This document shows positions 1-417 of a stretch of DNA of 417 nucleotides, piece after piece (the first letter of the stretch is position 1; each line of letters starts with the position of its first letter). This DNA is from Escherichia coli. GTDB taxonomy: Bacteria; Pseudomonadota; Gammaproteobacteria; Enterobacterales; Enterobacteriaceae. A model generated the notes under the pieces. That model was given only the letters and a program-made list of their open reading frames with translations. It ran no database searches and was not told the origin of the DNA. The DNA lies in the NCBI RefSeq assembly GCF_003334385.1, contig NZ_QOWN01000184.1; one strand, 5' to 3'. The translations under genes and the position numbers were made by a program.

Positions 1-294
1 CTGGATACCGATGGACTCCGGATCGGTGACGGTCATGGTGCCCTTGTTATCCACCGTTGCGCTGTCGCCGGTGATATCAATACCGTGACCGCCGCCGCTG
101 ACATCCAGATCGCCGTCCTGAATCACCTTCCCGTTATTGCCAGCAATTTCCGTACCGGTGGAATCCTTGCCGTCAACGGTGGTTTTGCCGTTGTTGTTTG
201 CCGTGGCGTCATCACCGTTAATCTGCGTGCCGGTGCCACCGTTGGTGATGGCGCTCTCGCCTTCGTTGTTAACAACCGCCTGGTCGCCGTCAAC
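1..294. repeat. One complete 294-bp (98-codon) tandem repeat unit; phase arbitrary, and bases 1-123 are the part duplicated downstream
   Basis: Direct base-by-base comparison: 1-123 is identical to 295-417, giving a period of 294 bp, a multiple of 3 and in frame with the minus-strand CDS. Only the 123 bp present twice can be compared; identity of 124-294 with neighbouring units is unknown. Confidence 0.93.
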
Positions 295-417
295 CTGGAT
301 ACCGATGGACTCCGGATCGGTGACGGTCATGGTGCCCTTGTTATCCACCGTTGCGCTGTCGCCGGTGATATCAATACCGTGACCGCCGCCGCTGACATCC
401 AGATCGCCGTCCTGAAT
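1..417 (-). CDS. Internal fragment (5' and 3' partial) of a large tandem-repeat protein; acidic Gly/Asp/Asn/Thr-rich beta-solenoid-like repeat region, probably a surface or secreted adhesin-like protein. Exact family unresolved.
   Basis: Seen in sequence: the minus-strand frame (codons ending at base 1) has 139 codons and no stop, and is open at both window edges. Codon choice is biased to enteric-preferred codons (ggc, acc, aac, gac, ctg, cag, ccg), whereas the opposite-strand ORF uses rare ttg/tta/tca/ata. The translation shows a 98-aa exact repeat and a 24/25-aa sub-periodicity with conserved Gly and hydrophobic positions. Inference: composition and periodicity resemble repeat regions of large secreted or surface proteins. 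No start, stop, signal peptide or translocator domain is visible in the window. Confidence 0.75.
   Translation of the reverse strand, partial: MQDGDLDVSGGGHGIDITGDSATVDNKGTMTVTDPESIGIQVDGDQAVVNNEGESAITNGGTGTQINGDDATANNNGKTTVDGKDSTGTEIAGNNGKVIQDGDLDVSGGGHGIDITGDSATVDNKGTMTVTDPESIGIQ
295..417. repeat. Partial second copy of the 294-bp tandem unit, 123/123 identical to bases 1-123 and truncated by the window edge
   Basis: Exact string identity to 1-123 checked segment by segment. The identity runs to both window edges, so the repeat array very likely continues outside the window. Confidence 0.93.

Follow-up and report, generated by a model that had tools for sequence, protein, structure and literature searches.

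The 81-codon plus-strand open reading frame in a 417-nucleotide stretch of Escherichia coli DNA is very probably an antisense shadow of the autotransporter gene ydbA

Open reading frames (ORFs) that lie antisense to a true gene and merely shadow it are a well-known artefact of gene prediction. Antisense overlapping genes have also been proposed for E. coli O157:H7, for example pop, which is antisense to ompA, and these proposals rest on RNA sequencing, ribosome profiling and phenotypes (PMC7103648). Here we analyze a stretch of 417 nucleotides (nt) of E. coli DNA (contig NZ_QOWN01000184.1; hereafter, the window), which carries an ORF of 81 codons on its plus strand. The window is almost certainly an internal piece of the gene ydbA, which is read on the minus strand, and the plus-strand ORF a non-functional shadow of that gene. 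The first-pass annotation, made from the letters alone, had already taken this ORF for an antisense shadow of a minus-strand gene, and its proposal is supported by the annotation of the locus, the architecture and predicted fold of the minus-strand protein, the codon score, the lack of conservation of the ORF, and a test of selection.

The window matches ydbA of E. coli at 100% identity, at a locus between paaY and pdxI. Its minus strand, read from base 417 down to base 1, comprises 139 open codons (1-417) of the coding frame of ydbA, a BigA-like type Va autotransporter, and the product from base 417 reads IQDGDLDVSGGGHGIDITGDSATVDNKGTMTV... Matches to the window were found in 2390 of 5426 complete genomes; owing to the repeats in ydbA, the median number of matching places per genome is 5. 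In RefSeq, all 45 genome rows listed have a single coding sequence (CDS) in minus orientation over the window, with an autotransporter-type annotation (the usual names in these rows are variants of 'autotransporter' or 'beta strand repeat-containing protein'), and there is no plus-strand gene under the match in any of the 45. The CDS is ydbA in each of the five E. coli loci that we opened, one of which comes from a row labelled 'hypothetical protein': these are K-12 (L001), strain 504239 (L002) and three strains that lack the paa genes (L003-L005). The gene is intact in strain 504239, where it encodes 2412 amino acids (aa) and contains the window at 100% identity as codons 742-880, and in the three paa-lacking strains, where the protein has 2771-2992 aa. 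In K-12, where ydbA is a pseudogene, the window belongs to the 5' fragment of the gene (842 codons, of which the window covers 350-488); IS2 and IS30 separate this fragment from the 3' one. A minus frame that ended just outside the window without a credible start had been named beforehand as an outcome that would count against the minus-strand gene; instead, the frame is in phase with the annotated K-12 start, 1047 nt (349 codons) upstream of the window, and remains open through 842 codons even in the K-12 fragment.

The K-12 records match the window at 100%, the CDS there is flagged as pseudo, 'missing C-terminus', and runs into the two insertion sequences, and many of the listed 100% matches are K-12 derivatives. 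The window could therefore come from the 5' remnant of an IS2/IS30-inactivated ydbA in a K-12-type source, in which case the minus frame and the plus ORF would both be relics, a possibility to which we give somewhat less than an even chance. The same 417 bases, however, are found at 100% in intact alleles, such as that of strain 504239, the K-12 fragment keeps the start, the signal peptide and 842 open codons, and ydbA transcripts have been measured by reverse transcription quantitative PCR in K-12 (PMC5811629). Whichever source is the actual one, only the status of the minus-strand gene is affected, and not the conclusion on the plus ORF.

A tandem repeat of 294 nt (98 codons), with a high content of Gly, Asp, Asn and Thr, makes up the window, which spans 1.4 copies of it. 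One complete unit, which is predicted to form four beta-helix coils of about 24.5 aa each, occupies positions 124-417 on the minus strand, and bases 1-123, with which the next copy begins, repeat bases 295-417 exactly. The intact 2412-aa YdbA contains seven exact-period 98-aa repeats (residues 252-937). There are 3.3 copies of the repeat in K-12 (7830-8711 of locus L001) and 7 copies in strain 504239 (9830-11887 of locus L002), all with 294-nt spacing, and 8-11 units in the three paa-lacking strains, with spacings of 294, 441 (294 plus a 147-nt half repeat) and 501 nt. Because neighbouring units are exactly identical over 123 nt, the region is liable to recombine and to collapse in assemblies.

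The shadow ORF begins with the TTG codon at position 137 of the plus strand, which corresponds to about position 2415880 of the K-12 record NZ_CP032667.1 in the plus orientation of that record, and comprises 81 codons up to a TGA stop at 380-382. Its start and length are as originally described, whereas the stop had been misplaced to 383-385, which reads CCG. A program that lists ORFs with both a start and a stop reports, as had been pointed out, this ORF as the only long one, since the other four do not exceed 56 aa. Also as described, the product is rich in Pro, Leu, Ser and Val, which account for 67% of its residues (P14, S14, L13, V13), and the derivation of these residues from the reverse complement of Gly, Asp, Asn and Thr codons is borne out codon by codon, with Gly mapping to Pro in 14 positions, Thr to Val in 13, Asp or Glu to Ser in 14, and Asn or Lys to Leu in 11. 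The two frames are arranged such that the first position of each codon of the plus ORF pairs with the second position of a ydbA codon, the second with the first, and the third with the third position of the neighbouring ydbA codon, so that each residue of YdbA almost fixes the residue opposite.

The same geometry bears on the length of the ORF. In this antisense frame, a stop can occur only opposite Tyr, or opposite His or Gln when the preceding codon has T as its last base. The repeat contains no Tyr and four His/Gln codons, two of which are in the stop-giving context, and the frame is accordingly open for 86 codons in each repeat unit. The stop-free stretch at 122-379 is opened by the plus-strand TGA at 119-121, which lies opposite the ydbA codon pair ATT-CAG (Ile-Gln) and recurs at 413-415. 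It is closed by the TGA that ends the shadow ORF at 380-382, which lies opposite the pair GGT-CAC (Gly-His), recurs one repeat earlier at 86-88, and is present at this position in 36 of 39 repeat units. The plus ORF would then arise where TTG 137, the first permitted start in the window's copy of the repeat, happens to sit near the beginning of the 86-codon stretch. When synonymous codons were drawn anew according to local usage, with the YdbA sequence held constant, 16.6% of 5000 trials gave an ORF of 81 aa or more in plus frame 2, so the observed ORF is no more than chance expects for a protein of this composition; in 26 neighbouring genes, 5.9% of the 81-codon windows in the same shadow frame lack a stop.

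Codon usage was evaluated with an index akin to the codon adaptation index, using as the reference 9167 codons from the same 26 neighbouring core genes. The first-pass annotation had contrasted a minus frame open across the window and written in preferred codons with the plus strand. The description of the minus frame holds (139 codons, index 0.82 against 0.73 +/- 0.04 in the neighbours), but the contrast does not, inasmuch as plus frame 1 is also fully open, so that openness alone does not pick the strand. Scoring of both frames, which had been suggested as a check, gave 0.819 for the minus frame and 0.593 for the plus ORF. In the reference genes, the sense frame scores 0.731 +/- 0.044 and the shadow frame of the same type 0.575 +/- 0.050, and the sense frame outscores the shadow frame in 101 of 101 windows; the plus ORF scores as the shadow frames of these neighbours do. 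The codons said to be rare, TTG (8), TCA (5), TTA (3) and ATA (3), make up 19 of the 81 codons of the ORF; ATA (relative adaptiveness 0.09) and TTG/TTA (0.32) are indeed rare, whereas TCA (0.61) is not particularly so.

Plus frame 1 (1-417, plus strand) is a second shadow frame, in which each codon lies directly opposite a ydbA codon. Neither the window nor any of the 39 repeat units contains a stop in this frame, which extends to as many as 880 open codons in the intact gene (5402-12640 of locus L002) and might for these reasons be taken to be the real antisense gene. The openness of the frame, however, follows from the fact that a stop can arise here only opposite the ydbA codons TTA, CTA or TCA, none of which occurs in the repeat. 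With resampled codons, the frame is still free of stops across the window in 18.8% of the trials, and the repeat units, being copies of one another, are not independent trials. Moreover, the amino acid identity between allele types in this frame is 0.58, and the ratio of nonsynonymous to synonymous substitution rates (dN/dS) is 2.9, a value on which plus frame 1 was rejected as a gene; the probability that it is one is practically negligible.

The plus ORF itself is poorly maintained among the homologous repeat units. The TTG start is kept in 8 of the 39, the rest having TTA or TCA, which are not start codons, and additional in-frame stops, at positions 167, 203, 224 or 296, interrupt the ORF in 28 of the 39, such that neither the start nor the open frame shows the conservation among homologues that would be expected of a functional antisense gene. 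The ydbA frame, by contrast, is open through 2412-2992 codons. Between the K-12-type units and those of the paa-lacking strains, which are 82% identical at the nucleotide level, substitutions fall mostly on the third position of ydbA codons (8380, compared to 1468 on the first and 2169 on the second). The frames can be told apart by changes that are silent in one of them only, which we counted as events, that is, as distinct variant bases among 36 unique repeat units. A pairwise version of this test was set aside because it was distorted by a few fixed Asp/Glu changes that were counted many times. Changes silent in both frames were observed at 99 of 165 opportunities (0.60). Those that are silent in ydbA and alter the plus product occurred at about this fully silent rate (17 of 34, 0.50), and those that alter YdbA and are silent in the plus frame at 16 of 86 opportunities (0.19), a significant difference (17/34 vs 16/86, Fisher p=0.0012). 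Selection thus protects YdbA and ignores the plus product, which displays no purifying selection beyond that on the host gene.

The protein protected in this manner has the architecture of an autotransporter. The intact YdbA consists, in this order, of a signal peptide, a Pro-rich linker, BigA_N, the seven 98-aa repeats, a long degenerate beta-strand region, BigA_beta and Autotransporter. The signal peptide, MQRKTLLSACIALALSGQGWA followed by ADI, has a basic n-region, a hydrophobic core and a small-x-small site, as judged by inspection. Pfam profiles identify the BigA_N beta-barrel domain (PF25784; 8e-33, residues 140-220), the BigA_beta sandwich domain (PF25783; 3.3e-25, residues 1981-2064) and the C-terminal 12-stranded beta-barrel translocator (Autotransporter, PF03797; i-E 1.1e-18, residues 2186-2382 of the intact allele), and the protein ends in ...KKTF, with a terminal Phe. 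Between the signal peptide and the barrel lies the predicted beta-helical passenger domain, as modelled below, which is the arrangement that characterizes type Va. For the region of near-perfect 98-aa tandem repeats in YdbA there is no Pfam family, and a Pfam search with the 139-aa window product gave nothing significant; this product aligns to positions 354-482 of the NCBIfam profile auto_BigA (NF033178, an 'exception' model). The entire 2412-aa allele obtains 1368.8 bits with this profile, the curated cut-off of which is 3400 bits, and a score of 1369 bits, so far under the cut-off, makes YdbA a relative of BigA rather than BigA itself. By analogy with the name of the family, YdbA might work as a surface adhesin; our literature search found no experimental paper on its function.

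Within the repeat, four coils of 24-25 residues make up the 98-aa unit, and they follow the pattern xNxGxxxVxGxxxxGIxIxGDxAxV. A search with the minus product against 1.84 billion representative proteins (50% identity clusters of about 15 billion) matched 148 clusters, 61 of them at E<=1e-10, most of which contain proteins of 600-2000 aa with several matching stretches. The AlphaFold2 model of the minus product, obtained with a 31-sequence alignment of such stretches, has a mean predicted local distance difference test (pLDDT) score of 98.1 and a predicted template modelling score of 0.91, and is all-beta, with three short strands per coil. The repeat is thus predicted, with very high confidence, to fold as a right-handed beta-helix like those of autotransporter passenger domains, and each 98-aa repeat would build four coils of this helix in the secreted passenger domain of YdbA. 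A Foldseek search with the model gave no significant match, and a sequence search of the PDB with the minus product found no relative.

For the plus ORF, the signals of expression and the relatives of the product are both scarce. There is no purine-rich Shine-Dalgarno sequence before TTG 137 (the upstream bases are CACCTTCCCGTTA) and no sigma-70-like promoter on either strand of the window, and a search of Rfam found no RNA family in it. Two terminator-like hairpins followed by T-rich runs, which are matches to a consensus, lie inside the shadow ORF on the plus strand, at 174-193 and 244-261; 0.4 would be expected from shuffled sequences. The exact 81-aa product, which contains neither Lys nor Arg and was looked up with either M or L as the first residue, is absent from the approximately 15 billion proteins; the plus product has no NCBIfam match, and its AlphaFold2 model from the single sequence has a pLDDT of 50.8. 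A homology search with this product retrieved nine small clusters, all of E. coli 'hypothetical proteins' of 45-119 aa, so that the danger of mis-annotation to which the first-pass annotation had drawn attention is real, although rare. Three of the respective loci were opened and, in each, ydbA is fragmented or truncated. In the draft AQEB01000103 (L007), the gene is broken up into fragments of 1486, 65 and 298 aa, and the gap (3952-4431) holds two called plus-strand ORFs, of 66 and 77 aa. The other two (L008 and L009) lack the paa operon as well as the 5' part of ydbA, and the truncated gene adjoins tynA; at 4001-4192 of both, a 63-aa protein was called from the same TTG start as the ORF in the window.

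These deposited relatives, together with a permitted start (TTG) and a stop, a plain dN/dS of 0.20, and the case made in the literature for the translation of some embedded antisense ORFs (PMC7457138, PMC7103648), could be construed as evidence for the plus ORF being a genuine overlapping gene, antisense within ydbA, that encodes a small hydrophobic, Pro-rich protein. Several points indeed weigh against our interpretation of the ORF as a shadow. The dN/dS is about as low in the frame of the plus ORF as in that of ydbA (0.20 vs 0.16), and the amino acid identity between allele types is 0.825 for the plus ORF and 0.803 for ydbA. Gene callers have occasionally called this TTG start (one such product, P0002, begins MPAISVPVESLP...). 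The comparison of the two models is unequal, the minus product having been modelled with the 31-sequence alignment and the plus product with its own sequence only. Lack of expression of the plus ORF is something we infer from the sequence. Finally, ydbA itself is a pseudogene in K-12-type genomes, so the 'real gene' is there a remnant. However, the low dN/dS and the high identity in the frame of the plus ORF stem from the third codon positions that it shares with ydbA, such that plain dN/dS cannot separate the two frames, and the changes that affect the plus product alone occur at the neutral rate (17/34 vs 99/165). The loss of the start and the premature stops in most of the repeat units, the shadow-type codon score, the lack of a Shine-Dalgarno sequence or a promoter-like site, the two terminator-like hairpins inside the ORF, the absence of the exact product from the approximately 15 billion proteins, the low pLDDT, and the confinement of the nine clusters of relatives to E. 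coli, with ydbA broken at the three loci opened, all argue in the same direction. We therefore regard a genuine antisense gene as extremely unlikely and retain the conclusion that the plus ORF is a shadow of ydbA.

One binding motif in the window deserves a separate mention. The sigma-54 binding motif CCGGTACGGAAATTGCT, at positions 142-158 of the minus strand and hence sense to ydbA, is a single exact match in the window, and none was found in 200 shuffles. It is the motif of the chromatin immunoprecipitation sequencing site IS17 ('intragenic sense', ydbA_1; FAT 2, PSSM 11.09; Bonocora et al. 2015, Table 2, PMC4591121), and is, by its identity to IS17, a GG-N10-GC (-24/-12) element that is bound in vivo, which speaks of binding and not of promoter activity. 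The motif is encoded by the version of the repeat that reads T-G-T-E-I-A-G, overlaps the first codons of the plus ORF, and points in the direction of ydbA; there is one copy in K-12, two in strain 504239, and none in the three paa-lacking strains. Apart from this table, our search for papers on ydbA and antisense gave incidental mentions only. Conceivably, the site in the 'EIAG' variant might act as an internal promoter or a roadblock, the copy number of which changes with the number of repeats. It is likewise conceivable that, with ydbA broken or silent in K-12-type strains, the plus strand of the repeat is transcribed there and the ORF starting at TTG 137 translated as a young, strain-specific small hydrophobic protein. 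Jointly, these two ideas have only a very slim chance of being correct.

The annotation of the locus presents some further peculiarities. Several intact ydbA alleles of about 2771 aa are named 'EntS/YbdA MFS transporter' in RefSeq (e.g. 2357-10672 of locus L003, NZ_CP147555.1, WP_011478180.1). This looks like a mix-up of the names YdbA and YbdA, the proteins being autotransporters and not transporters of the major facilitator superfamily (MFS). The intact allele of locus L004 carries the label 'hypothetical protein'. Between paaY and the start of ydbA, on the strand opposite to both, there is an annotated 21-aa 'hypothetical protein', WP_010723099.1 (9626-9691 in L001 and 12802-12867 in L002, plus in the orientation of the locus), which is conserved in both strains examined.

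The biological weight of these observations is small, since ydbA is already annotated and shadow ORFs are already known, and the finding as such is an ordinary one. There is, nevertheless, a practical lesson for the annotation of short or fragmentary contigs, in which an adhesin gene with many repeats and a high content of Gly, Asp, Asn and Thr gives rise to long antisense ORFs in two frames. Since one of the two has its third codon positions in common with the true gene, simple tests of dN/dS or of conservation will mistake it for a coding frame.

With respect to known systems, the window does not differ from E. coli YdbA (b1401/b1405, which is a pseudogene in K-12) or from the intact alleles of other strains: it is ydbA itself, with the same locus, the same frame and the same 98-aa repeats. 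The Salmonella protein BigA (NF033178) has the Pfam domains BigA_N, BigA_beta and Autotransporter in common with YdbA, to which its profile matches along the protein, and differs from it in the length of the repeat region. For the beta-helical passengers of classical autotransporters (Vag8, pertactin, Hap, UpaB, Pet, Fap2), the sequence identity is only 7-19%, and pectate lyases and phage tailspikes turn up as well. Like pop of O157:H7, the plus ORF is fully embedded, in antisense orientation, in the gene for an outer-membrane protein; unlike pop, it is known from sequence alone, and conservation of the ORF was sought and not found. With shadow ORFs in general, it shares a long stop-free antisense frame that results from the composition of the true gene, a shadow-type codon usage and the lack of selection of its own. 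What sets the shadow ORF of ydbA apart from the usual ones is that its length is set by the period of a repeat, the 294-nt unit giving exactly two TGA stops and, with them, a similar ORF in each unit.
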